A stretch of DNA of 63,984 nt, filler included, from Sluysia triapertura (taxonomy: Eukaryota), in NCBI GenBank assembly GCA_046118255.1. It is 4 parts of 4 records of this genome, joined end to end, with 100 filler letters (N's around TTAATTAATTAA, not from the genome) between each part and the next. Parts side by side here need not be neighbours in the genome. Positions count along the whole stretch, not along the records: positions 21,613 to 38,068 come from JBJNIA010203374.1; 3 more parts are not named here. One strand, written 5' to 3'. Position 1 is the first letter of the stretch. Every line of letters starts with the position of its first letter. The translations under genes were made by a program, and so were the position numbers. Below are positions 1,016 to 51,291 of this stretch, in pieces. Below the pieces are notes generated by a model. The model searched no databases and was not told the origin of the DNA. It was given only the letters and a program-made list of their open reading frames with translations.

Positions 1016-1249
1016 TTGACCTTCACAAACATCATAAAACCGTTGTAGTAGTTGTATAATCGACGATTTACCACAACCACTTGCGCCAACCAATGCGACT
1101 GTTTGACCCGGTTCAATAACCAAATCAAAATCATTCAATATCACAGAGTCAGGTCGAGATGGATAGGAAAATTTGACATTTTTCATTTCGATTGTCCCTT
1201 GCACTTGGCTCCTAATTCCTCCTTCATTCATTTTATCAATTTCAGGGAT
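1016..1249 (-). CDS. ABCB1: ABCB1/P-glycoprotein exon: start of NBD1 with Walker A
   Basis: IPEID...IEMKNVKFSYPSRPD...ALVGASGCGKSSIIQLLQRFYD; AG acceptor at 1250-1251, GT donor at 1014-1015. The gene presumably continues past the window start. Confidence 0.95.
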
Positions 1250-1337
1250 CTATGTAAACATTAATTATAGTTTCGTAATTATTAATAAGCAAATAATTAA
1301 TAATAATCAATAATCATAATCATAATAGATAACTAAC

Positions 1338-1451
1338 TCTTTCAGTTATTTCAAAGATCGTCGCAGCTGCATACCTAGACTTCATAATATTACCTAATAA
1401 TGGAACAGCTTGTCCAAATCCCATTGAACCCATTAAACAACTAAAAAATAC
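1338..1451 (-). CDS. ABCB1: ABCB1 exon (TM6)
   Basis: VFFSCLMGSMGFGQAVPLLGNIMKSRYAAATIFEITER; GT-AG boundaries, in frame with neighbours. Confidence 0.92.
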
Positions 1452-1950
1452 CTAAAAATATAAATTATGTATGAATTATGAATTTTAGTAATGTATAAAA
1501 ACAGAGCAATGTGATTTATTAATATATTGATTTTATAATGTAGTTACATTTTTTGTCGAAAAAAGCACTTATCACCAATACTGAAAAGCTATCAATATTT
1601 GTTTTTAAATGTGTATAACCGTTTATATTGCCATAAAAATCAATAAAATCAATAGCAGTGATCTGAAACATAAGTTGCACAAATTTAAAACTAAATTTAG
1701 TAAAAGAATAATAGCTATTTTTTCTCTATTTACTTACAAAATAATTTCCAAGCAACATATATGGTAGAAGTAATAAATTGTGAAATTTTTAGACAAAATT
1801 GTTATTTTTACTTCGACTTGTGTGGAGTCAAGAAAAGAATATACGCTTATAAGGGTATTCATTGTTATAAAAATTAATTGTGTTACGTCATGAAATAATG
1901 TGTACTAAGTTACAAAACTCGGATTAAAATAATAGCAAAAACACACTTAC

Positions 1951-2122
1951 AATTAACATTTTACCTGTTGTTAAACCTTCTTCTCTAATTAGTTTACTTC
2001 CGTACCAAAATCCGAGCGCATATGATAAAAAAAGAATACCTTGAAATATACCCATCATCAATCCCATTATGCTGCCTTTTTTAACTCCAGCTAGTGCAGC
2101 TTCATTTAAATTATTACCATAC
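1951..2122 (-). CDS. ABCB1: ABCB1 exon (TM5)
   Basis: YGNNLNEAALAGVKKG...LSYALGFWYGSKLIREEGLTTGKMLI; gtaagt donor. Confidence 0.93.
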
Positions 2123-3133
2123 CTATGATGAAATTTAATATCTTTTAATATATTAAAAATTTAATAAATTTTTGGAGGAAAATTATTTTCCCAATACCTA
2201 CTTAAAATAATTAATAATATATTAGTTTTTTATTGGGTCAGAAATTACGAATAAAATAAATTTTATTTCTAGCTCCATCTATTTTCATATGTGGTTTTCA
2301 GTTCTATGACTAGATTATCTTCTTATGGTTATTATATCTAACAATAAATAATAAATAATTCAATAATTCGTAATATACAATGTGTAATATAATATTCATT
2401 AATCTTTAAATCTTTGTTGAATAAAATTTCTTGTGAATTTATTGCTTTATTAATTAATTGTTAAGTAGAAAGAGAGAATCCCAAAAGAAGATAAAACAAA
2501 ATAGAATAAAATAAAATAAAGTGAGACAAAATAATATTTGTTCATATAACGATCAAAGTCAAAGTCGAGTATCGTCGCAAATAAAATAAAAAACTTACTT
2601 GCGTTTCCATTCCCAGTCATCGGAACGAGTATCCAAACTCAGACTTCTAGATTGAATAAGCGAACATTAATTGAATATTAAAACAATAACAAGTTTAGGT
2701 TGTTGCTGACTAACAATAATTTATATAAGTGAAGATATTTAGAGTATTATTGAGGACAAAAGTGTGTATTTACTAAAGTTGAGAATCTATTATAGAATCT
2801 ATTATAGATATTGAGGAATAGTAACTTGTTACAGAATTTGTATTGAAAGTCTAATTGTTTAATTTATTACAAATGCATATTAATTTATTGACACAAAAAG
2901 TATCCAGAGCCATTTGGAGTTTTGTAAAGAATAATAATTAAATATAAATAATTTTTATTAAGCTTGAATTTCTTAAATTCAACAAATGCATTTATTCTCA
3001 CAACAAATGGACGGATTGTACATTTTAGATAATGAAAGTAAATTTAATAGAAATGTAAAAACAGAAATGACATTTTCAAAAACAAAGACTGATTACAAAA
3101 ACACACACTCCAAAAAATAAATTCTACTAAAAC

Positions 3134-3258
3134 CTTTCTGCTTCATATTGTTCACCTCGGAAAGCAACTACAGTTCGAATAGATCCTAACACTTCTTCTG
3201 CTATCGCTCCTGCTTTTCCATATGACTGTAATTCAAATTGGTTCAATTTAGCCATCAT
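3134..3258 (-). CDS. ABCB1: ABCB1 exon (intracellular loop 2)
   Basis: MMAKLNQFELQSYGKAGAIAEEVLGSIRTVVAFRGEQYEAER, the ABCB AEEVLxxIRTVxAF motif. Confidence 0.95.
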
Positions 3259-3540
3259 CTACAAATATTTAACTATTTAATTAATTACTTATCATAAGAT
3301 CAAATTTATACATTAAAATTATAAATTTACATTAAGTATTTATGAATAATAATAAGCCTTTAATCAAACACAAATGTTTAATTAATACAAATCAATGCCG
3401 AGATAGTGTTTTTAAAAAAGATAATATACATTGTTTTTTAAGGACAAGTGATGCAAAGGCAAAAAACCTTAAAGCCACATTAAATAAAATTAAAATTACT
3501 TTAATGTAAGTAAATTTATAATTATCTTAATAAAAATAAT

Positions 3541-3595
<55 letters not shown>

Positions 3596-4319
3596 GACAA
3601 AACGAAATATTGTCAAAAACGATTATACTTAGTACTTTATATTGATTTTACAAAATCTAATCAACGTTTAGCTAAGTTCCATAAAATCTGATTTGAAAAT
3701 CATTTCAAATTCATTCTGCTTTTATTTATTGATCATTTGTTTATTATTTTATTTTTTGATTATTTATTTTTAGTAGTCATAAGAAACGAAAATATCTGAG
3801 GAATAAATATTCAAAATTCTGCAAATGAATTAAAATTGGCAATAGAAATATGTTAGAATGAATTCTATGCCTAAATGTTTGTTTCTCAGATGTTGTAAAG
3901 AACTAAATATATCGATATAATGGATTTGTGAATGCCAATTTGATTATTGCATTTTGCGATATTTCTTAATTTTATCATTCCATAACTTTATAAAACTTGA
4001 AGTTAATATGGTTGTTCAACCTATCTATTTAAAATATTTGTTTATCATATTAAACAATAAACATTTACACATTCCCGCAAATACTTATACAATCTATGCT
4101 GCACATCAAAATAAACTTTAATATGTAATATTTTATAAATAAAAAAATTTATAACAATAAAATTTCTATATTAACTACCATAAATCTCCTTAACCTTCCA
4201 CCTTAATTTTTTTCATTTCCCTTATAATTCTTACAATAGTCTTAACTTTTTTCTATTCCCTGCTCTCTTTTATAACGAGTTTTATTTACTACAAGTACTA
4301 CTATAAGTACTACAAGCTC

Positions 4320-5900
4320 AATTACCGCATCTGGCATTAATTCACGATGAAGACGAATAAATATTCTAAATAACGACTCAAACAAAACTTTAATAGAAAA
4401 TGTTTACAAATCAGAACCAGAAGAAATAAGAAAATACTTCTCACAACTTCAAACTCATTGTAGTTGTTTATCTTATAATGTTAAAACATCATGCGATTTA
4501 CTGATGAATTTGTTACTTACCTACTAACGATCGCTTAATGATATAGAAATTCTGAAATTGGAGAAACAGCAAAGCGAGTTTGTGATAAATGTTCAGTGGT
4601 TTTAGAAGAAGTAGACTACCAAAGATGCTTAATAAAAAAATGAAGAGTCAACTACTAAAAAGAACGATGTTAATATAGCGAAAGATGACTTAATAACGAA
4701 ATCAAAATCAAAAGATGATATTGTAGAAAATCTTCGTAACTCTGATCTTAAACAAGTGATATGTTTAAGATCAAGATATAAAACTCAAATTCAACATATA
4801 AAACTGGAATTGTCTTTACAGAATCATTGTGAAAAAGTGATCATTTTACTAAAAATTGCAAGAACAACGAAGAAGTCGAAAAAGACTCCATTTAATATAA
4901 CCAAAACTTAAGTACAATAAACGATCTTGATAAACGCCTAGGTCTTGAAGATGGTATTCGATAATTTGAAACTATAGCTGAAAGTGTAAAATTTACTTTT
5001 CCTAAGTACAAAAGTCTGTAAGTGATATAGTGCTTGTGTTTGTAAAAAGCCTCGAGTCCAACAACCTACTATAATAGATAAAAGTTCTTAATTTGCGTTA
5101 ATTTAAAGCTTATTTGTGTTGTAAGATTTTTATAAAATTATGTTTTTTGTTTTAATAATTGTGCTTTAAAGCACTAATAAAATTTAAAATTTTTAAAAAT
5201 CTGAAATATTGATTAATTAATCTATTGCAAAGTAAATCATATTATGGACGCAGATAATTTCCATGCCATATCACTTTTAGAACCGGTTGTTGTAACCAGA
5301 AATTCAGTTAATTTTGTGATTTAGACCTTTATTTGCATGATGATGAATATTGTAGAAACGTTCTGTGTTCTGCAGATATTAGTTTCGCAGTTACGATCAA
5401 GCTTGTAAATAGGTTGAGTGTGGACGATAAGTGCAGTGTGGACGATAAGTGCAGTGTGGACGATAAGTGCAGTGTGGACGATAAGTGCGGTGTGGACGAT
5501 AAGTGCAGTGTGGACGATAAGTGTTATTAACTAAAAAGGTTCTAAAAAAAGGTCTCGGCAAAGAGACGAGACAAACATATGTCGATGATTTAGCTGTTGA
5601 ATATGCATGTTATGATACTTCAGATAAACTAAACGAAAAAAACGAAGCTTTGCTGCTCAAAATAAAGACTGAAACTGCTATTTCTGAAAATTATGAATCA
5701 ATTAATAAAGTAAAAACGACGAATATCATTAAAGTGTTATTACAAGTACCACAAGGTCTTATATTATGTTTTTTGGTCCCTTAGTTACATTTTTTGAAAA
5801 GCACTTTTATTTTAAAGATTACGTACTGTAAGACCAATTAAATGAGGATCAAGATCACGGTGTCTATTACAGTCACATCTTTCATTCATGATCCTAATAA
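4320..5900 (+). mobile_element. Degenerate LTR-retrotransposon (gypsy-like) gag-pol remnant in ABCB1 intron
   Basis: Broken coding-like tract. ORF 5521-5784 contains QTYVDDLAV (RT YxDD motif). Boundaries approximate. Confidence 0.4.
5417..5524 (+). repeat. 18-bp minisatellite x6 (AGTGTGGACGATAAGTGC)
   Basis: Six near-identical head-to-tail copies read directly. Confidence 0.95.
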
Positions 5901-6855
5901 TAGTGTTATTCATGTGTTTTTTATGCTTTTGATTGAATCTAAATGTAAGCAGTGGAAATGAAAATTTGACAAACTTGTGTAATATCAAATGCAACCATGT
6001 GTTCATTTGTTATTTAATTTTAATTTGTTGTTTAATTTTAAATTTTAATATAAACAGTGAACACATCAATTTAAATGTATTCTTATTTTTATTAATTACA
6101 ACATGTATTAATAAACACCCTCCAAAATAATTAATTTCGTTAGTTTCAATATCATTAATATTACAAAAATCTAATTGTATTACGTGAAATTGAGCATTAA
6201 ATTCAAATTATAACTTAATACATTCCTTCGTAACATGCTTCTAAATCTTTTTAACTATTTATTATTTACATATATAATAAACTTCTTGGTCATCAAAAGA
6301 CTTGACTTTGAACAAAACAAAATAATTCAAAAGTGAATATATCATTTAATGATTTGATAATACCATTCATATCAAATTGTATACAGATTATTTCAATTAA
6401 TTTAGTGGTTATTAGATACATAGCACTACAATAATTTATAAAAAAGTGAAAAATAAAACAATAAAATTAATAATAATGAAAACAATAACAAAATTATTTA
6501 ATATTAATGTTTAAAATCGATTAAAATAGTTAAGCTTGAATGAGAAGTAAAAGTTATTTAAGGTATGAAAGTAAAGTAAATAAATGTGAAGATAAAATGA
6601 TGAGTGATTGGATATGAAGTAACATATTATTGTAAATGTATTATTATTTTTGAAATGATGAATTATGTGTTTTATATGTATTGTATGTATTTCATCAACA
6701 ATCGCCTACTTAATTGTGGTAGACAGTAACTATGGTAACTGGAAACAATATGTACTATATACACATACTTGGTTAGTTTTCTAAAACAATGTTTAACCAT
6801 AATGAATGTTTTGCAATAATTTAATTTGTTACTCAACGATTTTTTATTGTTATAA

Positions 6856-6921
<66 letters not shown>

Positions 6922-7006
6922 GCAACTACTCTAAATAAATGTCTTAGTGAAAATTGATTTATTTTTGAAAAATTAATTTAGTAGAAGGTAATTTGTCATC
7001 ACTAAC

Positions 7007-7178
7007 CTTTGTCATCACTGCAGTTACTATCATTATTAAAGGTGAAGCTGCTAGAATTACTAACGATAATTTCCAATTCTTCAGAAATGCTATAATCAAA
7101 CCACATGTACCTACAACGATCCACTGTACCATTTGTCCCATTTTACTACCGATTCCTACTTCAATTGTGTTGATATCA
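7007..7178 (-). CDS. ABCB1: ABCB1 exon (TM3-TM4)
   Basis: DINTIEVGIGSKMGQMVQW...KNWKLSLVILAASPLIMIVTAVMTK; GT-AG boundaries. Confidence 0.94.
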
Positions 7179-8757
7179 CTTAAGTTAAAGTTAAGTTAAT
7201 AACAATAATTATTATGATAATAAAAAGTTTATCACATGTAACTTTAGAATAGCCATTTTTTTAAAACATTATCGAATACAATCTTTCATTTTATAATTTA
7301 CCTTATTTATGAATAATCAGTTATCGCGTGTATTTGATTAAATAACTCAAGATAATATACCCTTATAAGCCTAAATATGAAGTTTTTTATTTTAATTTTA
7401 TTGAAAATTAATTACTTATCCCAGTATTGTAAAGGTCATTATTTGCAACATTTTCGGACCATTTTATATTCACGAATTCTACAATGAACGGTAGATGTCA
7501 ATAGTAACTCTTTTCTGCAAACATAATTTATTACAAAATTAATTATATATTGAAATATATTTTCTGCGTTATTACACCTACTTGAACAGAAAAGGGTCCT
7601 TAGTCAAAACGAAATAGTAATTATAAGATATTAAATATTCGGGAATTATGACCGATTTGATAGAACAATATGCTAAAGCTGAATGAATTTCGAATGAATT
7701 GAAATTAAGCCGAGTGGATTTTATCGAGAATGGATGTAGCTTGAAAACCTTTGATAGTCTTTTGATGAAGGATTTATGAAAACTTAAATTTAAATGTTAT
7801 TTTGCGGTAACATCTAAATAGAAAATCAATTTTATAATTTGTATTGAAATCACATTTTAAGCAATATTTGTTTAATAAATTATGACAAAATATTTTATAA
7901 AAATCAATCTGGTTTACGAGAACGACTAAAGTTTATTTCAATCTGAATACCAATTAATTGAACTTGGTGAGAATTTATTTAAATTCCTATAACGAAATTT
8001 TGATCCATCTTTGACTAATAACGTCGTTTCAAAATTTAATTTAATAATTAAATGTAAAATTGCGCAAAATTTTATCTTGTAGTTCAAAATTGGAATGATC
8101 TATTCGTAAAATGTAAATAATACGATAAATAATAATAAATAATAATCAATAATAAATATGATTATATGCGTACGACTTAAGGCACGATCATACTATCTTT
8201 TTATTTTCTAAGTCATTAATATAGGATTTATCTTGATGTAAGACTGTTGTAACTAATTAATGATCAATTTTCGACTAACTAGATATAGATGAGTGAAACT
8301 TGCGCTAAAAACTGAACCTTCACAACAATTTACATCACAACATTCTATTCATTTTGTTTTGTTCTTTGCACTTTGGAATAACATCAAATTTCTTTCTATT
8401 AATAGAGTGTGATACTAATTTTATTACATAGTAACATTTTTGATTTGAGTTAATGAACCTCTGACAGTGCGCTGAATCTTTGACAGGACCTTTACAAGCC
8501 AAAAAATATACTGTAATATGTTATCACTATACTCAATGAATTATTCTCATGAATTTCTAAATCATTATTATTATTATTATTAAATATTTCCGATGAAATC
8601 CGAATTGGTAGCAGCTGTAAAACAAAGTCATTTCTTAGTGATTGAATTGAAATAATGGAATTGCCACGTTGGTGATAATGTAATGATGCACTTTTAATTA
8701 AATGATAGTGTAATGATAAAAATTTTTACGATTATACATTTCAAATAAGATTTATTA

Positions 8758-8809
<52 letters not shown>

Positions 8810-9117
8810 CATTAACACTTTTACATTAGTAAGGTTATCCCACATATCTTATCTTAAAGAATTACATTGCATTAATTAAAAATTATACGATGAATATATT
8901 TTAAAATTGAATGATTTTGGGATGTAATAGATTTGATATAAACTGATATTTGACATGTATCGAAAGATCTGAAGAATGTAAGGTGTGATAAGTTGTAAGA
9001 ATTGTAATATTTTGATGAATGCTTTTATCGTAAGTGTTTGGAAATACTGTACAACAGATCCTTAGTATTTTAAAATTTATATATTTGTGACTCTTTTCGA
9101 CAGATTAATAAACTTAC

Positions 9118-9289
9118 TCAACCAATTTGTTATTAAGAGCACCGCTTCTCTGTGAATCAAACCAACCAATATTCTGTCTTAAAATAGCTTTGAATAAGTT
9201 CATGCGCATTTTGGCAACTTGACGACGAGATGTAATACCAAGAAAAGACTCGGATATGTATGATGTAACAAACATACCAAGAGCAACAA
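9118..9289 (-). CDS. ABCB1: ABCB1 exon (TM2/intracellular loop 1)
   Basis: RRQVAKMRMNLFKAILRQNIGWFDSQRSGALNNKLV, matching ABCB ILRQxIGWFD; gtaagt donor. Confidence 0.94.
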
Positions 9290-10424
9290 CTTAATTATAT
9301 TTATTGATTTAAAACATAATTTACAATATAATATAATATACAATGTAAAGTCACAGTATGATTTTAAATTAATGTGAAACAATTATTGAAAAAGAAAATT
9401 AATTTTTTGTAATTTTTTCTTCCTCTACAAAAATAAATGTAAAGATATTAAGTAAAGTTGCTGAGTTCACTTTCGAAAGTTTGTGCGAATTTTGTTAATT
9501 ATCTTTATCACCGATTTTTAGATTTCTGATATTGTAATTTTTCTTTTCTTTTATTCTCATTGAAAATTGATTACAAACACTTTCTAAAATTCAAAGAACT
9601 GCAACATACCCTTACTCTAGATTGTATGTGATCTGTGCTTGACAAAGTGTCACTATAAATGGAGCAAAAACAATTAAAAACTGAAAATTCTTAAATTTTA
9701 ACCAGTAAGTAATGTTCTATTGTAATTTTACTTTTAATAATGATATATCCATTTATTATAATCATAGGTTGATTTAAAACTATTTTGAAACAAAAGCCGA
9801 AAATAATTATTGGACAATGCATTTATTAAAAAAAATCAGTAATCAAAAATAAACACAGTTTTCAACTAAACTGTCACATTTCCGACGAAAATACGAAATG
9901 TTACGAATTTTACCACGATTATTTATGTTTTTTAAAGGTAAGAAAAGTTTCAAAAGGTAGAAATAGTATTAAATATCCTACATAAGCAGAAAATCCTATA
10001 AATAATTATGGGAAGAATAAAACCAGTAAGAAGTAGCTACAGTTGTGAGAAACATTTGAAATTTAATATTTTAATTGGTGAAATTTGGTAGCAAAAGTTA
10101 TATTTCAAAGTGTTTATCTCTAATTTAGGGAAATTTTTAAAACTCATTTTAAATTTTAATTAGTTAAAACAAATTGAAGGTTAAATTAGTTAAATCACCT
10201 TATAACTAAATTTTATGCAAATTTTTCATAATTTTGTGGCAAACAAAAGATTCTTATTAACAAATACAATGGAGTTATGGAATATTTTAATGAAATATTC
10301 AAAATTTAAAGTGATTTATATATTTCTTTTGCCAAAAATTACTTTAAATTTGACATTTTTTCTTAATGTTAAAACTTAAATCGCCAATGTTGCACAAATG
10401 AAATGTTACGCGACTATCGCTTAA

Positions 10425-10996
10425 CCGCTGGAGTTGCATTAATTCAATCTATAACATGTTTGTTAACAACGTATCTGTATTGATGGTCTTACGAGTTTTA
10501 TCTTGTCAATTGAAACAGCTATTTTCTTATGCACACTCTGTTTCTTTGTACACATTTATGTATGAGTTTACATAGGCGATATATTTTTCCGTTGAATTTT
10601 TCCTAATTAATTAAAAAATAGTTATAAAATATTTAAAAATAATGTGGATGTGCCATGATGAAGAAATCTATGCACATGATTTATCTTGCAATGAAGAACA
10701 GCGTGATTTAGAAAATTCTGAAGACGAAGATTTTAGTGACATTCCCGAAGATAGTAATGATGCTGAAATTATACCCATCACAAAACAACGTAAAACTGAT
10801 CAACCTTTCGATACATCTACTGACTCAGAATCGGACATAAATGATGTTGAAAACGATTGGTCTCAAAATGACAATGAACCATGTCTTAAACAATTTTTGG
10901 GAAATACCGGAGTTAGTTCAAATTTTGAATTAAAAAATGCAAATAAATGCCGGTGGTTTATATATATCTGCGATTAAAATAATAGGCTGTCAAACT
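10425..10996 (+). mobile_element. Internally deleted piggyBac element (PGBD4-like acidic N-terminus)
   Basis: ORF 10642-10977 is acidic and ends WSQNDNEPCLKQFLGNTGV, like piggyBac N-termini. TTAA flanks both sides; TIRs are weak. Confidence 0.55.
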
Positions 10997-12894
10997 GTTA
11001 ACTTTTACTTAGGTCAGAAAAGTTTAATTTATTTAAGTTTTATGACAAAATATAGAGAATTGTGTTACATTATACATTGGATTCGTTTTTTCAGGTTCTG
11101 GAATTAATGATGTACGAATAAACTATTGGTTTTCCGAATACCTTCAGGGAAATTTATTCAGATGCCAGACAAGTGACTAAAACAAATATACAAATACTTT
11201 GTTTACGTATTACTAAACGTCATAATAAAGAAAAATGAATATAACTTATAAAATTTAAGTTTTAAAATAAATTATAGGACAGAAAAAGTAAGACGAACTA
11301 GCAAACCATCTGGCAACTTCTTCCATTTTTTTCATTATGTTGTATTGATCAGGCAATTGAAATCCTGGATTAGTAGTTCTAAATAAATACATTATTATTA
11401 AGCTTTATCTTAGATTTTTATATAATTGTACTAAGTAGAATATTTTGCTTATAAATAATGTAATATTATTAAAAAATAATACCATATTATCATGTTTTGC
11501 TCTGATTTGGACATTATAAATGTTTATTATTTAAAATTATTTTGAATATCGCTGGAAATATATAATGACTAACAATATACTCGATTAAGATTGTAGTTTA
11601 ACATATTAAAGATTAAACAAAAAATTAATTCAGTTAACAATACGAATTTTGAATTAATTAGAGCTTTCACTTTAACTTATGAACAGAATGAGAATGAAAT
11701 TGTAATTGTACTAAATCTAGAAAAATTAATGAATGAATCTTAACGAAAATCAGAAAATAAATGTAACTATTATTTATTGAAATTCACTCTACTAATAATT
11801 AATCTAATAATATGATCACTAAATTCATTAAATATATAATATAATATACAAAAATATAATATAATATGATAAAGTTCTATTCGGGACAATATTTTGGAAC
11901 TTCGTTTTGACATAGAAATTGAATTAGTTGTTTAGTTTAACATATTTATATAAAAACAGTGAAAAATCGAACATATGAAATAATTTCCAAGTAATCTTGA
12001 ATATTAAATTTAAAATTTATTACCGAGTAAATATAAACTTAATTAATGTAAATTTTTTGCAAAAAATATTGTAACAATGTCAAAAATTTGAATAATTAAA
12101 TAATAATTTGATTTACATAACTAAAAAATATTACTTTACAGAATAAAGCCTTTAAATACATTTTGTCCAAATTAAAAATAAGTGATGCTATAAAACTATA
12201 CCTAGAACGGAAGTTAGTGCATTTAGTTTCTTCTAGAATACCATTAACTCAACATATTCCAAATTCTATGAAAATTTGGAGATACCTAACGTAGATGACT
12301 ATTTCATATACCTATTAATTAAAAAAGTAAATGTAAATATTACAAAACATTGCTGAATTTCGAAACCTAAGAAATTCGTTTTCATTTATATGTATTAATA
12401 GCAAAGTTTAATATTTTTAAAATGACGTTCGAAAGCTTCTATTTTAATTAAATAATTACTAAATAATATCCCTATTGCTCGATTTACGCGGTAGATATGT
12501 TCCAAAGAAAACCAACAAAAAATACGCATTATTTATTTTATACATTGTTTTTTTCAACTTCTTTAAAAAATTAGAACTTCTTATTATGTCAAAACACAAA
12601 CATACGAAATAATACAAAATATAAAAACATTAATTACGACGATATTTGTTATTTTAAATTGTGATGTTTGACCTATTATTTACTTTTCCATTAAAAATGT
12701 TTGAAAACCCAGTGGAATGTTTATGTTAGTACGGCACAAATTGTAGGAGACGTAATTATATTATTGAATTTTATTATTAAAATTACAAGATTAATATTAA
12801 CAGATACATGTCAGTAAGTAACCAATAATAAAATTATCGGTAAAATTGTACATAAAAATTTGTATGTAAGAATATAAATCAAAATAATTATTAC

Positions 12895-21512: not shown

Positions 21513-21612
21513 NNNNNNNNNNNNNNNNNNNNNNNNNNNNNNNNNNNNNNNNNNNNTTAATTAATTAANNNNNNNNNNNNNNNNNNNNNNNNNNNNNNNN
21601 NNNNNNNNNNNN
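21513..21612. other. Assembly gap/spacer (N44-TTAATTAATTAA-N44)
   Basis: Seen directly; all-frame stop linker. Confidence 0.97.
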
Positions 21613-21839
21613 AATATTTGCTTTCTTGTTTCAATATAATTTTACACATTCATATTTGTTTATAGCTTTTGTTTATTGATTATGATTTTGCATGTAGTGT
21701 TTAACTGAAAGTTATGTATTAACACTTTATTTTTATTTTAGTTTTTTTTTGTTAATTTTGTTTTTTCTGATATTTGTAAAAACTTTAAAGAAATATCAAA
21801 GTTCCTTGTGCTTGATCACGAATTAACCAATCATTAGAA

Positions 21840-22817
21840 TTGCTAAAAATAGCTTTGTGTTTTGTATTAATCGAAGTTATTTTTCTTTTTATGAAACGAT
21901 TCATAATAAAAACAAAGATTCAAAGGTTACATAATAATTCAAAATTTTTTAAATTACATTCAGAATTAACTTGGTTAACGAAGAGCAATTGTATCGTGAA
22001 CCTAATTTCGAACATGCTTGACAAAGAAAATGAGTTTCATTTTGAAAAACGAGAAACTTCAGCAACTTTGGCATTGAACCACTACGTGATTAATCTAACA
22101 GCACATAAGTATAGATCAATAAATGATCGTTATGTAACGTCTCTATCGGATTACGAAGAGACTTCCAACAGATTGTTCAATATGTTTTCGTGTCGAGCAC
22201 ATGGAATCCGTACCTTGACAGATGTGAATGAAAATGAGCGCATTTCAAAGTTTGATGAACACCAGCTTATGGTTCGTCCAGAATTGGCCCACGCTTTTAA
22301 AATGTCCGAACTTTTACTAAAAAACGAATTTAAACAATTGTTTGATCAGTATGTGTATAGATTGCGTTATCAAGATGTGTCTAATCGTAATAAAGTAGCA
22401 CTGATGTCATTTCATATAGCTCACGAAATTGAACAGACCAATTTTTACCCAATGAGTCGAGTGTTAGAATTACCTGGAAAAAAATTTAGTAAAACTGAAT
22501 TTTGTGAAATGGAACGAAACATAGTAAAAGCTTTAGATTTTAATTTATATCCATCATTACCTATTAATTATTTATGCACTCTTATTTTAATGGAAACTGC
22601 GATGTTTGATGTTTTCAAATTCAGTTTTGAATATATGAATGAGGATCGTTATTTTTCTTTTCAATTTTTCATTAACGAAATTAATTTAAAATATTTTAAT
22701 CCTCACGTAGACCTTAAGTCTGATTTCACTAATATTAAAATTCTAATTGTTGAATTTAAATCTCTAAAAAATTTTCTTAAATTAAATATTAATATATACC
22801 GGCCATTACAATCGTGA
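21840..22817 (+). CDS. Divergent intronless cyclin-box protein (plausible ATG start near 22014, MLDKEN)
   Basis: VALMSFHIAHEIEQ...FSKTEFCEMERNIVKALDFNLYPSLPINYL matches cyclin-N helices 3-5; KEN motif near the likely start. Confidence 0.7.
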   Translation: MLKIALCFVLIEVIFLFMKRFIIKTKIQRLHNNSKFFKLHSELTWLTKSNCIVNLISNMLDKENEFHFEKRETSATLALNHYVINLTAHKYRSINDRYVTSLSDYEETSNRLFNMFSCRAHGIRTLTDVNENERISKFDEHQLMVRPELAHAFKMSELLLKNEFKQLFDQYVYRLRYQDVSNRNKVALMSFHIAHEIEQTNFYPMSRVLELPGKKFSKTEFCEMERNIVKALDFNLYPSLPINYLCTLILMETAMFDVFKFSFEYMNEDRYFSFQFFINEINLKYFNPHVDLKSDFTNIKILIVEFKSLKNFLKLNINIYRPLQS

Positions 22818-22915
22818 TGCCATACTTTTATCAGGGTTTCAATAAGTTCCGTTGGTTTGTGGGTAGAAACTCTCCTTTTGACAATCTCCCACAAATTTTC
22901 TATGGGATTCATGTC
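22812..22915 (-). mobile_element. Tc1/mariner transposase fragment
   Basis: DMNPIENLWEIVKRRV, the (SP)DLNPIENLW catalytic-E motif. Confidence 0.8.
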
Positions 22916-23096
22916 TGTTTTTCCTGTTTTAGTCTAATAATTTGGCCACCACTGTAGATGCAATGGAAGATGTTGAAGAATCCATCGAAATATTCAAATT
23001 TATTTAATTTTTCGTTGTGATATCGGTGTTTTTACAATTTCGAACTAAGAACTTCTAGAAGATTGGCAGAAGTTCAAGATTAACGAATAATTAGGG

Positions 23097-23649: not shown

Positions 23650-24166
23650 AATTAGGGTGTATTCAGTTACTAGATAAGCCAATTCAGACAATTCGTGTGA
23701 GGTACGACCCTAATCTTGAAGTTACTATTGTTAAAACAGTTCAAAATGAAGCAAAATATTCGTAAATAGTTGTTACATCTTTTACATAATTATACTTTCA
23801 TTTTCGATTCACTGGGAATAATGAGTATTGCAGCAATGTTTGCTCAGGATGTATCATATCACATCAATAATAACGGGAAATTGCAGAAAATATAAACATT
23901 AATAAACATCAAAAAATAAACATTAAAATGGATATTTCATATAATATTATGTTACATTTTCCAAGGGTCGAAGCATTAATCGCAAGTTGAACTTGTCATA
24001 TTGATTATGTTAAAAGTGTCCCATGGAAGAGGTGTTTGGGGGAGCTGGTTTAGTCGCATGCGCGGTTCTTTATAGATTGATTAAATTGGGATTTGGTGTT
24101 AATTAATGGGATTTAGACGATGTTTATTGTATTTGGTAAGTTGACAATTAATTTGTTTGCATCGTA

Positions 24167-24217
24167 AATCCATTCGAAGTCATTGTAATATAAATTATTA
24201 ATACCAATGTACACAAA
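24167..24217 (-). pseudogene. Polinton pPolB motif A remnant
   Basis: FVYIGINNLYYNDFEWI resembles YLDxNNLYG...FEW with an internal deletion; collinear with the upstream PolB fragment. Confidence 0.45.
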
Positions 24218-25390
24218 CTATTATTATCAGATCTTACACAAAGTTTCCAAAAAAACTAAACACATCAAGAATAGTTAAAACCAGTTACTCATCATCTTGT
24301 GATTTAACTGTTGATACTTAACTTAAGCCAGATTTAAATGATTTTCATTTGTTGCTTTTCCTAAATTCTTCAAAAATGTCAACCAATAAATATGTTATTG
24401 TGTATGGATTTAGTTTGTGTGTATCTATTGTGCAATGGCTTATTGGATACATCGTTAGTGGGTATAGTGTTATTGGGTTATAAATTCGTTTAGGATCGTG
24501 TTTACTTTATGTGAAATGTTAAAGGATCGAATGTATTTTATCGTAAGATAGAGATGGTGGTCGAATGTTAAGAATGAAAATCACAGTCGAGCATCATAAG
24601 GATATTGGAAAATTAACTCAATTACAGTTACGAGGGTTGAAATTAAGTAAAACTGGAATGAAATGTAGTTTGTTTGCATTAATAGTTTCACGTATTTTAA
24701 TTGAAATGTTATCCAAGTGAGGTTTATTTCAATCTGAATACCGAATAATTTTTATTGAAGATTATTTTCTTTTATTACTTTGGAATTCATCCTTTTTCGC
24801 GCTAAACAAAAATATAACAAAATGGGTTGGTATCACTCTACATTCACTTCTAGCATTAAATTGTCGCTGTGTCTATCGGATCTCCATTATTTCGAGTTGT
24901 ATTGATTTCAAAAATAACAGGTCAGCTCCAATCTCTTTCTGTCTATGCTGTCATCGAGAATATAAAGCTCTATCTTTTTACTAATTTGTTGATACAACCT
25001 TTTGTAAAATGTGCTAACTTCTATTAATCCTTTAAACAATTTCAGATACTTTTGAAGTTCCATTTGGCTGTAACACTTCGCGAACAATATTTGATGTACT
25101 TACTTCAACACAAAAAGTTAAGATATTCTGCAATTCTAATTTTCATTTAATTAATATTTCAATTAATATTTCGATATTATTTTTCAGGGATTTCATTAAA
25201 TACAGTTAACTTTTAATAGATTTTAAACACAAAGTCTTTATTATGGCACTCATTAAAAAGTTTTGCGAATATGGTATAATGTATCGTGATGTACATTGAA
25301 AATTTTGTTATTTGTGCTGTGGGTAAATGTTTTTCTGAAAAGTGATTCTGTAATAAAATCGGTGGTAATGAGTTGAACCACCACAGGAGT

Positions 25391-25654
25391 GTCTCATTTT
25401 AAATATACCATCATGTAATCGAATAAATTATCACAATTAATTCTTGCCACATTTAATATCTTATTATAATCGTTATCAGTTAGATCATTATTCTATTTTG
25501 TACTACTCAGAGTAGTCATCATGTGATAGGGAAAAATACTTTTTGATTTTGCTATACTATTTGAAAATACATTACTAGTTAATGATAGTGCAGACATCGT
25601 GCTCGTTAAATTTGCTAAAATACTTGGTGAAAATGGAAAACTATCTATAAATTT
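25391..25654 (-). pseudogene. Polinton/Maverick protein-primed DNA polymerase B fragment
   Basis: KFIDSFPFSPSILANL...KSIFPY...DLTDNDY...CDNLFDYMMVYLK*D resembles FIDSFRFMxSSL...KGxFPY...ISDEDY...CKTLGDYHDLYLKxD; two stops. Confidence 0.72.
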
Positions 25655-25748
25655 ATTTGAAAAAGTTTGTTAATTATTTAGTTAATTATTATGTAAATAA
25701 GGCTTGAAGTTTTTGCTGAAATTTTTGAAATTTTGCAGCTTTTAATCA

Positions 25749-26690
25749 TTTAGCAAATTTAATGTCTAATCTCACATTTCCTTGTTGTGATAATTGTTTT
25801 TATCGATATTTATCATATTTCATTGTTTATATTTTTATAAAATATATTAAATTTCTAATAATTGATTATACATAAAATTTAACGACTGCATATTATCAAA
25901 ATTCACTGCCTAATTGATTCGACATTACAATATGCAAAACTTCATGCATCTTTTCAATCATACCATTAATTTTATGTGTAGTTTGAAATGTAACCAAAAC
26001 AAATTTCGATAATCCAAGTTGACCTTTTGGTGTACTATATATTACAAGTTTTGATTGACGAATTGGGTAAATTAAATTTGAATATTCTAGACCTAAATAA
26101 TGTCCAACTATGACTCATAGCTCAAATTTAGCTCGTCTTACGTATATTTTTGCATCTGAAAAAACAACTTTATAACTATCAGTCCCTGAATCGGATACAA
26201 AGCAAAAGTTTGATTTATTTCTTTTCAATTTCAAGTAAGCATTTACACCTAGAATCACGTATTTTTGTTGATTGAAAACATTTAACAATAATGAAACACA
26301 TTTCAAATTTTTTGATTTTTCAATCCGTTGCATTCTATTTCTTTTATTTGAATCGTACTTGATGTTATAACTTCAGTATCACAACCATAATTTAGAATAT
26401 TTTCGAATACTACTTTGTGTGCATAATGACAATCCCCACCTTCAATTTGAGTACTACTAAATGAAAAAATAATATCTTTCCATAATGCAAAAACAGGTTA
26501 TCTTTATCTTCTTTACCATCTGATTTTGTAACTGTCAAATGAACAAATAATAATGTATTTTAAATTCTGCATCTCCGTAATTATTATTTATTGAATTGGT
26601 AGGATAAATCTCTTCAAAAGTTGTACTTAATATAACAACTCCAGAAGGAAGACGATCAAAAATACAAAACTCAGTATTTTCACAAGTCAT
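25749..26690 (-). pseudogene. Polinton/adintovirus major capsid protein (F54H12.2/PY-like), frameshifted
   Basis: Collinear motifs: CENTEFCIFDRLP..FEEIYP, YAHKVVFENILNYG, FNQQKYVILGVNAYLKLKRNKSNFCF..DAKIYVRR, YPIR, GNVRLDIKFAK. Confidence 0.82.
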
Positions 26691-27899
26691 TATGATTGCG
26701 GTCACTTTCTGTAGTTTAGTGAAGAATCAAAAAAAATAATTAATTATACTTAAATAAAACATGTTTTGATAATTTTGCATTTGTTAAATGCAGATCCCAC
26801 TTTTTTCAATCTATATTTTATCTCTTTTTTGCATTTCGTTCATCTCGTTGTTCTTGTGGTAATGGTTTTCTGGTTTGAGGATTTTTTAGGTAATGGCTTT
26901 CGTATTACTGATATTGTCATAGTGCTACAGATTTCACATTTTTAAAATAATTTGTTACTAATGGTGTTGATACATATGAACTTAATGAATTTCTTGGAGA
27001 GCGAAAATTATCACTATCTATATTGTCTTCACTGTTCTCAACTACTCTCAACTTTTTAGTGATGGTAGTCTTAAAGATATATACGGAATTAAACGGGAAT
27101 GCGTTTCGTAATTGAGCCAACAAGTTGATTTATTTTTATAATTTTTTGATTATGTACTTTTAATATTTTAAGAATTTCCTACATCTGTGGTACGATAACT
27201 TTTATGATTATATGTAATCATATTAATAAAAGTATTTATATAGTTTTCATTCGTGTCATCCTAATATGAGCATCACCCTAAATTCTTATTTCGTTAAAGG
27301 TATTGCTTTATTACTATGCGTAATTATTTTTGGCGTTCTAGTATTACTTGACAGTAAAATTTAATTCGTGCAAGTATCGAAGCGCTGATGATTTTACGAG
27401 GCTAAAACAAAACCCATGCCAAAATAAAATAATAAAGCAAAAAAATTATTTGTTTTTTCTGTCAATAATATCAATCTTCTGCAACAATTATAAACCATCC
27501 AATCAATGTTTTCTATATCTAGAAATAAATTGAAATTAAAATTAACCCAAAATAACCAATCAATAATCTTTTACTTTGCACACATACTGCTTTGGCTTGT
27601 TTTAATTAAATTTTAAGTAACTAATATCATTAACAACGTGACCTTTGTAATTAATATTTGCTAATATGACATAAGAAATGACGAAATGATTTCCATTGTA
27701 CTTATTTATATCCTCATAAATTTTTCATTAGCAGAGAAATGACTAAATGACAATGACATATGACATATGACAATAAAATGACAAGTTTTCTGTCTATGCA
27801 AAAATTTGTGTATACAATTGAGGCGCGTTTTTTCTTGTATCATTTTTGTATTCAGTGTTTCATATCCAAGTTGATAAAATAATACCACTTTTAACAAAC

Positions 27900-28230
27900 C
27901 GTGTACCAAAGTTAGGCAGCTTACGAAAATTGGTTGTAGCGCAAAATGCGACTAGCATAACAAAAAAGATTGGCCTCCACTGGAAAAAGAAAATTTTCGT
28001 CGGATTATGAATGATGAAACACCAATATACGAAAAACCTAGAATGAAATGTACATTTTACAAGAAGATATAATTTACAAGTTCATCTGAATTTGATGGTA
28101 AAGAAGATATAACCAATTAGAAATCTCTAATCCAATCTATAATGAAATATCGCGGACGTTTCGCTCAGCATTTATTGCGAATGTCATTCATAATTTACAA
28201 AATTTATTTTAGGGTCAGCGAATAATTAAT
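27900..28230 (+). mobile_element. Tc1-like transposase remnant
   Basis: KDWPPLEKENFRRIMNDET resembles KDWTxEDWxxVIFSDES; degenerate. Confidence 0.4.
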
Positions 28231-29835
28231 TTTCATCATTTAAAATTAACATCTTTAACATTCTTTATTATTACAAACTTCAATTAATCTTCAGTACTTT
28301 ATCTTCTCTTTATCAGCAAGAAATATTGGAAGTTAAAAGATTGTCCATGTAATAATGTAGAATGTGATGTGTAATGCACTTGGATAACATTTTCTGGTGT
28401 CACAGACCTAACAGAACATCGGCAATTTATATTAAATTTAGTGAGAATGGAACCCTTACGAACTTTATATTTGAACCTATTATGCTTACTGTAGTGGCCA
28501 ACACTCACAACCTAGAACTTTCTAAAACATAATATCCAATATCCATAATTTAAATTTCAATAAAACATAAATTCTAAAGAAATCACACTTCTTACTATCG
28601 AACTACATCAACTCAATCATCATAAACAACACTCAACATTTATAATATCAACAATTCGATTAATACCCTTAACCATCTACCTCACAACATACTCTGATAA
28701 TCAATCCCGAATAATCCACAGCATTCACTCAAAAGCTACGTCATCAAACAGACTATAACTATAATACATAATACACAAATCATAAATACAAAAACATCAC
28801 TTAATAACATTAACAATTACCTCAGACATAAATAACTTTTGCATGAAAACTCTCAATCAACTACACTAAACCAAACCCACTTCATTTACACATATTCATC
28901 ATCAACACTTACTCGCAACAACATTATAAATACGTCAAGATTTATTTTGTAATCGTCGTTTGAATTTAAAATAACTTCAACCTTTCAATAAGCATCTCAA
29001 ATCATCATATTCAAGGCATAAATCTTTAATAAATTTTAATAAGTTATCCTAACATTCTTCGTTTCAATTACAACTCAAATCATTTCTGTTACCTTTAAAA
29101 ATAAACAACTAAGCTTTAAACAATTCATTATCTTAATATGAAACAACAACGATAACAACGGTATACCTCGTTGCCGTTGTTCCTTCACAGCACGTTATCA
29201 GTTTTATTTCCTTTTATTTATATGTAAGAACAGTAAAGAATAGAAAGAAAAGGTCGTGTGGTTTGTTAAAGGAAAGATTCATGTGATTTTTATTTAATGA
29301 CAATAATAATAATAATGTTATTGTTATTATTATTATTATTGCTATGATTTACTCAACCTATTTTAATAATTTTAATTTATTTTCGTCAAAACAGTTGCTG
29401 CCGTCATCAGTACTGATAACGCTGTTTAAAAATGTCATTCGAGTGACAGTACTGATGATAGTTGATAATCTATAATTAATTTTATAAATGAATTTTATTC
29501 ATTACCCAATCAGAGTACACATTACTGACAATACTCACAAATACTCTGATTGGGCAGACTAAAAATAGCATAAGAGATTTTTCAATAATCAGATACAATA
29601 TTATTATTCAGTGAACAATAAAAGTTATACTGAGACAAAAAAATTAAAATTTTTTCGAAATTAATTCATAAATGCTACAAAAACCATCGTTAGATGATTT
29701 TAGCTTTGCTTTGGCCGAGCACTCTGATCTGTTATCTGTCAACCACTTCCATTCAATTTATTTAAAATTACGGAAAAGGCAATTAAAAGGACATAATTCT
29801 GTACAAATTCATGAAAATTTACTATAATGCAGGAG

Positions 29836-30483
29836 CGAATTGAAAAGACTCGTCAGAAAAGGAATTCCTAATACTCATAGACCAAAAATCATTTCCATGT
29901 TTAATAAAATCAAATTACATTTATCTTTTCATCAGTCTAATGATGAATTTATCAGTACTCTCAGTGATGGATGTACATATCTGAACCTTAATGTCGTCAG
30001 TATGATAATTAATTATGGGTTAATTTTGCCTCTTTTGACAAATATAATTATTTCTGCAAAATTTGGAGAAGTTCATTTTCTATTAATTGCAATAATAACT
30101 ACGTTAAATAACAAACATAAACTTATTGACTCTGATTTTCAAGCTAACGTTGTCCAAGTAGAAATGCACGTTAATAAGAAATTTTTAACGCAAGATTTGT
30201 CAACAGATCACAATGTACTTGTCCTATCAATTTGATGTTGAAAAATTTTAATTATCTTCAAACTACAGTTCGTTACACTCATCAGTCAACTGCAATAGCG
30301 TCTACGGCAATAAGAAAAGGAGTATTCTTTCTTAGATCAATTTCCGTCAAGGAATTATTCAATCAATTCGAAAACTTTCTTACCAAACCGATTACCAAAC
30401 AGAATCAGACTATGAACCGTTTCATTAGTGCCAGAACGATATTATCAAAGATACACTTAGTAATAAAGATTCTACTCATGTAA
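29836..30483 (+). pseudogene. Degenerate TBC-domain (Rab-GAP) gene
   Basis: SELKRLVRKGIPNTHRPKI is the TBC box-A motif; later DFQANVVQVEMHV and KGVFFLR loosely echo TBC C-terminal motifs. The coding sequence is split over two frames and no catalytic motifs are evident. Confidence 0.55.
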
Positions 30484-37152: not shown

Positions 37153-38040
37153 TTAAGTTATATATGTAAAAAAATGATCCATTGGAATTGTACTCGACTG
37201 TATTTCGTTCGCCACTGATCCGAGCATGTTGAATTTTAACTTAATAATACAATAATAAATAATGTAATATATAATATAATTAGAATAAGTAGTAATATTG
37301 TTGAATGCAAATCTATTACTTGATAGGTAAATTGTTTCTCCATAATTGCTCACCAGACTGTCGTTTCTAGTGTACGACAGTATTAGAAGATCGAATTGGA
37401 CATTGTTTGGTCTCTGCTTTACACTAATCACGTAATTCGTATTCTGCTTTGCGTTAATGACATCGTTAATATTCTGCTTTACGTAAGTGACAACATTTGT
37501 GCCGTGTTCTATACTAATTACATTGTTCGCGTTCTGCTTTACACTAATTACATCATGCGCACTCTGCTTTACATTAATTACATTATTTGTACACTGCTTT
37601 ACACTAATTACATCGCCTACACCCTGCTTAACACTAATTACATCATACGTACTTTGCTTTACACTAATTACATTATTGGTACTCTGCTTTATACTAATGA
37701 CATCCAAATATAAAAACGATTCTCGATCTAAAACTGAAAACGCTAAAATAAATGCATCGTCTACATCGCTTGTATCATCAATAAACCTTAAAATAAATGG
37801 AGTTGTTTTTTGAATCCACAGTCTTAACATCGCTGGAAAAGCATAAGTATCAGAACTATCAATAAACTGTACAGTAATTGATTGACCATTTACTTCGATA
37901 ACTTTATTGAAAGTATGCTTAAATGTTGGAGTATACTTTTCCACAAAAATATGTTGTGAAAATTGACGAACAATGCTTGCTTTACTGACTGGCCCACAAC
38001 CTAAGATATTAATCATTTGAGATTCATTTGTTGGATACAT
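37153..38040 (-). CDS. RASD/Rhes/Di-Ras-like small GTPase N-terminal half with degenerate G1/G3, fused to a 10-aa tandem repeat
   Basis: ILGCGPVSKASIVRQF..FVEKYTPTF..IDSSDTYAFPAMLRL..DAFILAFSVLDRESF; FPAMxRL is typical of RASD/Di-Ras. The 5' end lies 28 nt from a gap. Confidence 0.72.
   Translation of the reverse strand: MYPTNESQMINILGCGPVSKASIVRQFSQHIFVEKYTPTFKHTFNKVIEVNGQSITVQFIDSSDTYAFPAMLRLWIQKTTPFILRFIDDTSDVDDAFILAFSVLDRESFLYLDVISIKQSTNNVISVKQSTYDVISVKQGVGDVISVKQCTNNVINVKQSAHDVISVKQNANNVISIEHGTNVVTYVKQNINDVINAKQNTNYVISVKQRPNNVQFDLLILSYTRNDSLVSNYGETIYLSSNRFAFNNITTYSNYIIYYIIYYCIIKLKFNMLGSVANEIQSSTIPMDHFFTYIT
37405..37703 (-). repeat. 30-bp tandem repeat x10 encoding VISVKQxxN(N/D)
   Basis: Plus-strand core CTGCTTTACACTAATTACA recurs every 30 bp. 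Confidence 0.93.
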
Positions 38041-38068
38041 TGAAAAATATTCGATCCAAATTCAAAAT

Positions 38069-38168
38069 NNNNNNNNNNNNNNNNNNNNNNNNNNNNNNNN
38101 NNNNNNNNNNNNTTAATTAATTAANNNNNNNNNNNNNNNNNNNNNNNNNNNNNNNNNNNNNNNNNNNN
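38069..38168. other. Assembly gap/spacer
   Basis: N44-TTAATTAATTAA-N44. Confidence 0.97.
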
Positions 38169-49347: not shown

Positions 49348-49446
49348 GTAACTGCGCATAATTACTTTATAACTTTCGGAATGAATATCAATACTTTATT
49401 ATTCTAAGTTTTACCATTTATGATGTAAATATTACTTTTAATTTAG

Positions 49447-49673
49447 ACTGTAAATTTGTACCAAGGTGTGTTATGGTAGACATGGAGCCTTCAATACTTA
49501 ATTGCATATTGTGTTGTTCTCATAAAGAATTTTTTAATCCAGATTGGGTCATAAGTGGATGCCATGGATCTGGTAGTAATTGGGCTAAAGGTCATTTAAC
49601 CGATGGGGTTGAATTAGTTGACAGTACTCTTGATTTATTGAGAAAAATAACTGAAAATTGTGAAACTCTTGTT
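49447..49673 (+). CDS. TUBB: Divergent beta-tubulin exon
   Basis: KFVPRCVMVDMEPS...GSGSNWAKGHLTDGVELVDSTLDLLRKITENCETL; AG and gtaagt boundaries. Confidence 0.88.
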
Positions 49674-50222
49674 GTAAGTTTACTTCACGGATTGTCTTGA
49701 TTGAAAACAGCAATTATTAAAATTTTACAACCTCTAAAATCTCATAATTTTTAAAATTAAAGTTTTAATCTAATCTGCAAAATAGGTTTAGTTCTTCAAC
49801 GCATCAAGAATATTGTGCAGAGCTTAAATAACAGCCATTAATAAAATACCAATGTTTTCTTCCTAATTCCTGACAATGTAATTTTAAAATACATGTTAGG
49901 AAGGAAAACAATTCTATTTTTAAATCGTATTTTACAAAGTGAATCTTCTAAACCATATTGAAAAATCGATATATATTAAATGAGACCCTCATTTTCAAGT
50001 TAGTTAAAATCCTATAGGTACGTTTTTCGTAATAATATAAAACATATACCGTAGGTGGACCCATAATATTAATAAAATCATTTTTGCTACAAAAACAAAG
50101 CATTTGTATCTGTGTAATTATTGATACTTTCTAATATATGAGTATATGTTTTGTTTGAAAATGTGTTTTATTTTTCAAAATAAAATTTTTTTTCAACTCA
50201 AAAATTATAATTTTATATTTAA

Positions 50223-51029
50223 CCCTTAAGCTACCACGGCAAAAAGTCACAACTTTTACCAAGCTTTGTCAAATTTGACCAACATTCAAATTTCATAAAG
50301 TAGTACAAGATAATTAAAATATACGAATCACTTTTATTCATTCGACACCGAATCTGGCATTGATTGGCATAGGTTACATAATATTTGTTCGCAGAATGAA
50401 ATTTTGCACATGTGGAACATTTTAAACTAACTTTTGGCATTTTTTTCTTTACCTTATAACCATTTGCTTCGCCATTAACTGCTAACCATAAATCGCTTAT
50501 ATTATGCTTGGAATCATGGTTAGAACCCGTCATAATAAGAATCCCAAGAACGCGTTGACTTGGATATAATATAGTGTCTCCGCTCTTATGTCGGTTAGTG
50601 TAATAAACAATATTTTCAACCATAGACTCGTTCATAAATTTGCCAAATGATTCAATACTTGACTCACATTTCCTTTTCCTGTATTTCCTGCTGTTTCTTT
50701 CATGACGTTTGTCTATATCTTCTGTCTGTCGATGGATGTGATTCGTACTGCTTGCCTGGTTTCGCTATTACCAGATCGCTTCCTTCATTTTGTTCTTCTT
50801 GTTCTTCTTTACCAGTGTCTCCGTGTAAATTCATATCATTTTCGATTATGTGGAATAAAGTAGATGCGTTTATATTTTTTGAATAAAATAACTGATTTTG
50901 ATGCATAAGGTTTAAAGTGAAAGGAAAGATCATGTAAAAGAATTACTTTTATCTAGCTCAATAAAATGAATTTGAGACTAATTCTAATTTCTTGGTCATT
51001 TTTGACTAAACTTAGTAACTGAAAGGCTA
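50223..51029 (-). mobile_element. Internally deleted piggyBac in the tubulin intron
   Basis: IVYYTN..LGILIMTGSNHD..ISDLW and a C-terminal CSTC; TTAA-CCCTT..GTCAAATTTGACC at one end and GGTCATTTTTGAC..GAAAGG..TTAA at the other. Confidence 0.75.
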
Positions 51030-51162
51030 TTAATGTAAAACCAGTACTTTTATTTATAAAAATTTATTTTTGGTACATTTTTCTGGAAAAAATTAATCCT
51101 TGAGAATTTCAATTAAATTAATCTATTCTTTATTTCAATATTTAGTATTTAAATTCATTTAG

Positions 51163-51291
51163 GGTTTTCAAATGATTCATTCACTTGGAGGAGGTACAGG
51201 ATCTGGATTAGGTTGCTTGCTTACTAATAGAATAAAAGAAAACTTCTCTGATAAAATTATGTGTAATTTTTCAATTTTTCCGTCGTCTAAG
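51163..51291 (+). CDS. TUBB: Divergent beta-tubulin exon with tubulin signature
   Basis: [43 protein letters not shown]; phase-0 splice from the previous exon. Confidence 0.9.

Follow-up and report, generated by a model that had tools for sequence, protein, structure and literature searches.

The window analysed here is a 63,984-nucleotide stretch of the Sluysia triapertura genome (assembly GCA_046118255.1) in which four contigs, not necessarily true neighbours, are joined by artificial linkers (N44-TTAATTAATTAA-N44 at 21513-21612, 38069-38168, and 53026-53125). Within the contig at 21613-38068 (JBJNIA010203374.1), we examined a candidate relic of a Polinton/Maverick element, in which broken genes for a major capsid protein (MCP), a protein-primed DNA polymerase B (pPolB), and a TATA-binding protein (TBP)-like factor lie on one strand, the minus strand, within 3.5 kb of host-like DNA (24167-27667).

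Capsid and polymerase pseudogenes

Translation of the minus-strand frame 26690-25740, with X at the stops, retrieved three proteins of 405-407 aa at E-values of 9.4e-32 to 6.1e-27 (190 candidates), and a profile built from these three recovered 199 proteins with E-values no higher than 1e-20; none of the best 120 of the 199 bears an informative name. When the relatives were aligned to the window with tblastn, the relic MCP was resolved into four colinear pieces in three frames, with three frame changes, which together run from 26690 to 25734 and bear out the frameshifted minus-strand capsid gene of the initial annotation. The first piece (26553-26690) retains the start codon and covers residues 1-46, with 41-56% identity to the best-scoring relatives and 31.9 bits with the A2 profile. 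The second (26497-26559, residues ~56-76, in another frame) is weak alone, being colinear at 21-26 bits with some relatives only and reaching 1.6 bits with the profile, and the third (26372-26488, residues ~89-128) shows up to 63% identity and 33.6 bits. The fourth and longest piece (25734-26366, residues ~133-384) scored 101.5 bits, against at most 5.2 in five shuffles, and was aligned by hhalign at a probability of 99.9 (E 2.6e-33). All 120 of the best 120 relatives match 26690-25734, with one weak match elsewhere in the window, and the top tblastn score is 131 bits, where the window in reverse gives 23.5 and none of 20 block shuffles exceeds 28.1; these relatives were found using the relic itself, and the database E-values provide the independent measure. 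A phage collection gave no MCP match, sequence searches of the PDB, with the relic or with two MCP profiles as query, gave nothing meaningful, and no further locus for MCP, pPolB, or the TBP-like gene rose above background within the 64-kb window.

The capsid fold was taken from an intact relative, P0002, which was modelled on 113 sequences at a pLDDT (predicted local distance difference test) of 92; an earlier MCP model built on three sequences was too poor (pLDDT 53.5) and was not used. Against the PDB, the P0002 model matched Vp54 of PBCV-1 (E 4.2e-16) and iridovirus capsids, which are of the double jelly-roll type. In a viral library, its top match was a protein of Cotesia bracovirus that is uncharacterised (E 1.5e-26, 26% identity), with capsid proteins of adomaviruses, MELD viruses, and giant viruses next, and in the Atlas a double jelly-roll cluster came first among the matches, at a low recognition value. 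The presence of a double jelly-roll MCP gene as a pseudogene is thus confirmed, with the fold as predicted for the intact relative.

The nearest MCP relatives of the relic are P0002, P0005, P0018, and P0019. In a quick tree of 61 of the 113 aligned relatives and the longest single-frame piece of the relic (62 rows), the relic was placed among the ~405-aa relatives, a placement of which we are unsure, on a branch 1.87 long, where end branches have a median of 0.38, as decay would predict.

Whether the capsid gene could have been domesticated and still serve the host was considered in view of its retained start codon, its open first piece, and the 50-60% identity of some pieces. The gene as it stands includes three frame changes, seven stops in the main piece, several internal deletions, and the loss of the last ~20 residues, and its four pieces sum to 317 codons against ~405 in the relatives, so that, as far as the sequence tells, a domesticated capsid protein is refuted at the protein level and the idea is hardly credible. 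An alternative genetic code was likewise ruled out as the source of the stops, since both TAA and TGA are present, stand across from different residues in the aligned relatives, and are accompanied by frameshifts.

The pPolB pseudogene begins ~70 bp past the truncated MCP end. Its translated middle part (25660-25391) matched eight proteins at E 0.001 or better in a search of 1.84 billion proteins (best E 3.8e-9), seven of which contain DNA_pol_B_2 (PF03175), while five also contain Endonuclease_7; the eighth, the repeat protein P0125, was excluded from the profiles. A pPolB motif of this type accompanied by Endonuclease_7 has what we take to be a Beta-adintovirus look. The piece spans 25391-25663 on the minus strand, includes two stops, and scores 83.1 bits against at most 7.4 in five shuffles, and the polymerase fragment annotated at 25654-25391 is therefore upheld with a slightly earlier start. 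Several hundred N-terminal residues are gone, the piece starting at residue ~305 of the 819-aa P0123; the MCP tail adjoins mid-pPolB, and a large deletion must therefore lie between them.

The pPolB match ends at 25391 and picks up again at 24392 with the adjacent motif, and the alignment gap between these motifs corresponds to a ~1-kb insertion of 998 bp (24393-25390) that splits the gene. The distal part (24167-24392, minus strand) comprises a continuation at 24392-24348 and then eroded pieces as far as the first palm motif (~24220-24188). The continuation is the window's best match to its pPolB sub-profile (8.9 bits), and in further scoring it reached 24.2, against at most 23.5 in 20 shuffles and 24.1 at another site of the window. 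The piece that the initial annotation had assigned to pPolB at 24217-24167 scores 4.2 bits by itself, which is within chance, yet it finds its place within a colinear chain whose start at 24392 had been missed. Past 24347, this chain scores 39.6, a value matched by none of 200 shuffles and none of 103 genomic tiles, in a test that is supportive and not decisive, having been designed after the pieces were known.

Within the insertion, an HSP90-like fragment was detected on the minus strand at ~24914-25099 (Pfam E 0.0015, in one of 150 ORFs (open reading frames) scanned; PDB E 1.2e-4), a match of moderate significance that may derive from a copied host gene. An extension into the neighbouring frames was suggested by eye, and no further HSP90 match was found there. 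The insertion junctions showed neither a clear target-site duplication (TSD) nor a clear terminal repeat.

A TBP-like remnant and its relatives in gene context

Gene context for this capsid family was obtained by using the MCP alignment to scan contigs of bacterial and archaeal genomes, which yielded 51 candidate stretches, two of them encoding relatives (L001 and L002). L001 (JANOGQ010000345.1) is a 12.7-kb contig of 33% GC in a Lysobacterales metagenome-assembled genome (MAG), probably mis-binned eukaryote or viral DNA, and it carries a near-complete Polinton whose reading frames are open (1-11330). The element encodes a pPolB without a PF03175 match, an A32-type ATPase, a pX-like protein, an integrase with rve and Chromo domains, a penton-position gene, a small ORF, an MCP of the same family (47% identity to P0002), and an adenovirus-type protease, in addition to a 150-aa TBP-like protein (10246-10698) and an exonuclease-like one (ORF at 10736-11215); for the latter and for the penton, the label was assigned by position and by eye, without a Pfam match. 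Imperfect inverted repeats (~3-90 and 11222-11326) flank all of these genes, the contig beginning within the left repeat. A comparable fragment, L002, lies in a Planktothrix MAG and has two penton-like ORFs, and in both of the two loci with context an rve+Chromo integrase lies beside the capsid module.

Comparison of the 37 ORFs of L001 and L002 with the window gave notable matches for the MCPs, for pPolB (weakly), and for the TBP-like ORF (27664-27551), the last of which arose from the gene content of L001 and not from searching with the relic. A profile of ten members of the TBP-like family scored 31.1 bits at 27667-27548, where 20 shuffled windows gave no more than 9.1; the frameshift-aware score was 46.5, against at most 31.1 in 20 shuffles, and hhalign returned a probability of 97.3 (E 2.8e-11). 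The piece, of ~40 codons with two stops (27548-27667, minus strand), aligns from family residue 1-3, in the divergent first part of the family, and is matched by eight of the ten members at E 0.2 or better; past these first ~40 codons no trace of the gene was detectable in the relic. The L001-type family itself matches Pfam TBP, and F21, F41, F101, and F117, which we take to be the DNA-inserting phenylalanines of TBP, are invariant in all ten members, as expected if the DNA-binding saddle has been kept. Judged by these alignments, the piece at 27667-27548 is a 5' remnant that preserves the beginning of a TBP-like gene of viral type.

That the piece matches by chance, or is a host TBP pseudogene in decay, would be suggested by the presence of just 40 codons, with the remainder of the gene undetectable, and by the other host-gene scrap in the same region. 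Such an origin is at odds with the family-specific nature of the match, which falls in the divergent start of the L001-type family from residue 1-3, while the piece itself matched neither Pfam TBP nor any solved cellular TBP (0 matches at E up to 10). On the sequence comparisons this explanation is largely refuted, and we give it very little credence. The same bases had been read as a weak chromodomain-like trace at 27545-27595 and as a possible integrase tail, neither of which withstood the analysis: no Pfam Chromo match was found in three frames, no match was obtained with a chromodomain profile of two related integrases, a BLASTP comparison with the L001 integrase showed no similarity, and no integrase trace was found in the window. 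Between the TBP-like piece and the MCP, the stretch 26691-27547 has no informative Pfam match; a possible trace of the small pre-MCP gene of L001 and L002 near 27239-27084 scored 4.3 bits, against up to 5.3 in 20 shuffles, and is within chance.

Origin, decay, and host setting of the locus

The assignment of the MCP and pPolB follows from strong matches to intact relatives carrying those features, and these matches, along with the near-complete L001 and its same-family MCP, support the endogenous, capsid-encoding Polinton/Maverick relic that the initial annotation had proposed. We hold with high confidence that the locus 24167-27667 represents a single copy of such an element in a eukaryote chromosome, internally deleted and long dead. 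By analogy with L001 and from established Polinton biology (PMC4028283, PMC8502044), the parent would have integrated by means of an rve integrase, which is inferred because both relatives with context have one, would have replicated with a protein-primed PolB, and would have built its capsid from a double jelly-roll MCP and a penton, with a packaging ATPase and a protease. Its short TBP-like protein probably bound AT-rich viral promoters and may have recruited the host transcription machinery. After insertion, the copy would have decayed as stops, frameshifts, and small deletions accumulated; the MCP tail would have been joined to mid-pPolB by a large deletion, a ~1-kb piece bearing the HSP90-like fragment would have been inserted into pPolB, and the remaining genes and the ends would have been lost. 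The relic now yields no functional viral protein.

Several observations weigh against this reading. A Pfam scan of the relic frames gave no direct match to DNA_pol_B_2 or to an MCP/jelly-roll family, which, read to the letter, is the outcome that the initial annotation had named as its refutation, although strong matches to intact relatives having these features were obtained; most MCP relatives themselves have no Pfam jelly-roll match (PF21738 at E 0.01 or better in 2 of 113). Two strongly supported branches part the relic MCP from the L001 MCP in the quick 62-row tree with its long relic branch, and the gene order is unlike that of L001, where the TBP-like gene comes after the MCP and the protease, with an inverted pPolB at the far end. 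Profiles of the integrase, chromodomain, penton-position gene, ATPase, and protease of L001 and L002 found no trace in 23900-29000, and those of the pre-MCP, pX-like, exonuclease-like, and 128-aa ORFs found nothing there (best 4.3 bits); these profiles were built from one or two sequences and, on an eroded and deleted copy, are no proof that the parent lacked those genes. Polintons are bounded by terminal inverted repeats (TIRs) with AG/AGT end motifs and by a 6-bp TSD; no repeat pair surrounds the relic, nor was a TSD found. With the integrase, ATPase, protease, penton, TIRs, and TSD all missing, most of the defining Polinton features are therefore absent, and, where an intact Maverick has open core ORFs within TIRs and a TSD, the relic has stops, frameshifts, deletions, and missing genes. 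A 38-nt inverted pair of 76% identity (24071-24108/26778-26815) was rejected as a TIR, being one of 172 such pairs in this AT-rich DNA, not appearing in blastn matches at E 1e-3, and leaving the TBP-like piece outside.

The missing integrase would also fit a parent that was an integrase-less Polinton-like (MELD) virus and that entered the genome by accident instead of transposing, and the closest MCP relatives come without genomic context. The rve+Chromo integrase beside the capsid module in two of two loci with context tells against such a parent, which we regard as improbable. Somewhat less improbable, and still unlikely, is a compound locus, in which the remnants are Polinton-derived but stem from at least two insertions or from a rearranged heap, so that the parental order was not TBP-like, MCP, pPolB. 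The gene order unlike L001, the 860 bp without assignment between the TBP-like piece and the MCP, the abutment of the MCP on mid-pPolB, and the uptake of foreign DNA in the HSP90-like insert would all be expected from such a history. Yet every piece lies on one strand in a span of 3.5 kb, with none elsewhere in the 64 kb, L001 combines all three genes, and a single large deletion accounts for the MCP-pPolB junction, all of which is in keeping with the single decayed copy that we favour.

The window DNA is eukaryotic; it contains ABC-transporter exons, a beta-tubulin exon, cyclin-like and Ras-family ORFs, and a Tc1-like scrap. Its GC content is 25% as a whole, and that of the relic pieces (0.24-0.26) is the same as in their contig. 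With respect to the animal host of adintovirus-type elements, the traits found are those of an intron-bearing, AT-rich eukaryote, without an established diagnostic animal marker; intron size and transposon content make an animal the likely host type. Near the relic, outside the element, a cyclin-like host ORF occupies a single open frame of 333 codons (21816-22817, plus strand; Cyclin_N E 4.7e-4, under the curated cut-off), and a Tc1/mariner-like transposase scrap lies at 22832-22981 on the minus strand (DDE_3 E 0.0023). At the other end of the contig, a Ras-family ORF (37153-38061, minus strand) is closest to Rap1 and then to Di-Ras, with a degenerate P-loop, and is broken in frame by ~10 copies of a 30-bp repeat (37412-37704). 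In the same contig, the start of the ORF at 29828-30235 (plus strand) appears TBC (Rab-GAP)-like by eye, without Pfam support.

Elsewhere in the window, the ABC transporter exons are spread across 1010-9290 (minus strand) and spaced by 2-5 kb. Strongly divergent beta-tubulin exons occur at 49362-49700 (match ~49440-49675) and ~51160-51290 (plus strand), and the ~1.5-kb intron contains an ORF (50231-50764, minus strand) that is piggyBac-like by eye without Pfam support, as is 10615-10977 without a Pfam match. A Tc3 transposase helix-turn-helix scrap lies at 3-173 (minus strand), and related inverted repeats of 88-129 nt (14811-14939/15280-15408 and 17021-17108/20252-20339) are probably elements resembling miniature inverted-repeat transposable elements. 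A WD40/CDC20-like exon (56104-56313, minus strand) and a TROVE-domain exon (63406-63579, plus strand) were also observed. The CpG observed/expected ratio over the whole window is 1.03, and this lack of CpG depletion suggests a host with little DNA methylation.

Relation to known Polintons and Mavericks

By itself the relic is ordinary genomic debris, and its one unusual trait is the TBP-like gene. Through it, an MCP subgroup represented here otherwise by unnamed proteins and contigs in the wrong bins is linked with the genome of a eukaryote host. The TBP-like gene is present in both L001 and the relic, two elements whose MCPs fall in different subgroups, on which account we tentatively propose, as a reading that is plausible and falls just short of probable, that a little-described Polinton group with an MCP of ~405-420 aa and well over 100 unnamed relatives regularly encodes a short TBP-like factor, and that the relic ties this group to an animal host. 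If this is true, small integrating DNA viruses steer host transcription through their own TBP, as some giant viruses likewise use their own TBP. The occurrence of the gene in two Polinton MCP subgroups turns transcription self-control into a testable question, and the TBP-bearing group is the sole lead worth following here.

A literature search by listings, with most subscription journals outside its coverage, turned up no work on a TBP-like gene as a Polinton trait, the only entries being in figure legends of Starrett et al. (2021), and term searches in PMC11161782 and PMC11131425 returned no occurrence of TATA. Those legends (Fig. 5 of PMC8502044 and bioRxiv 10.1101/697771) already label a TBP-like gene in an element with an adintovirus-like PolB; the comparison with these MELD viruses is by legend wording alone, in a section mostly on non-animal datasets. 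Polintons/Mavericks are common virus-like DNA transposons; according to the accessible part of a survey of 7,103 assemblies, 781,111 dsDNA viral regions were found, many of Polinton type in invertebrates (10.1101/2025.04.19.649669).

As listed in the available text of Krupovic et al. 2014 (PMC4028283), Polintons encode a double jelly-roll MCP, pPolB, an rve integrase, a packaging ATPase, a protease, and a penton protein, and a TBP-like gene is not named there among the core genes. The double jelly-roll capsid gene and pPolB are common to these elements and the relic; L001 also has the rve integrase, ATPase, protease, and penton-position gene, whereas the relic keeps MCP, pPolB, and TBP-like pieces only, without ends. 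L001 and the relic share the MCP family, the pPolB type, and the TBP-like family, and they differ in that L001 is near-complete with open frames, belongs to another MCP subgroup, and has another gene order. With the Beta adintoviruses, or group 1 Polintons, the order integrase, penton-position gene, small ORF, MCP, and protease in L001 is similar to the Beta panel labels in the machine-read layout of Fig. S2 of PMC8502044, as far as this source was available, and the L001 pPolB gives no PF03175 match, as a divergent Beta PolB would. In contrast, the closest pPolB relatives of the relic do match PF03175 and its MCP relatives are short (~405 aa), the likeness being by description only. Membership of this class is judged by the clustering of PolB and hexon with the Terrapene reference and by an OTU domain, and in the relic the N-terminus of pPolB is missing.

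Degraded copies are the norm among Mavericks, since, in the accessible part of Barreat and Katzourakis 2021 (PMC8097293), 96% of 3,511 vertebrate loci are eroded and TIRs are often not discernible. Although the host of the relic is a very AT-rich eukaryote and the two are likened by description only, the stops, frameshifts, large insertions, and missing TIRs of those vertebrate loci recur in the relic.

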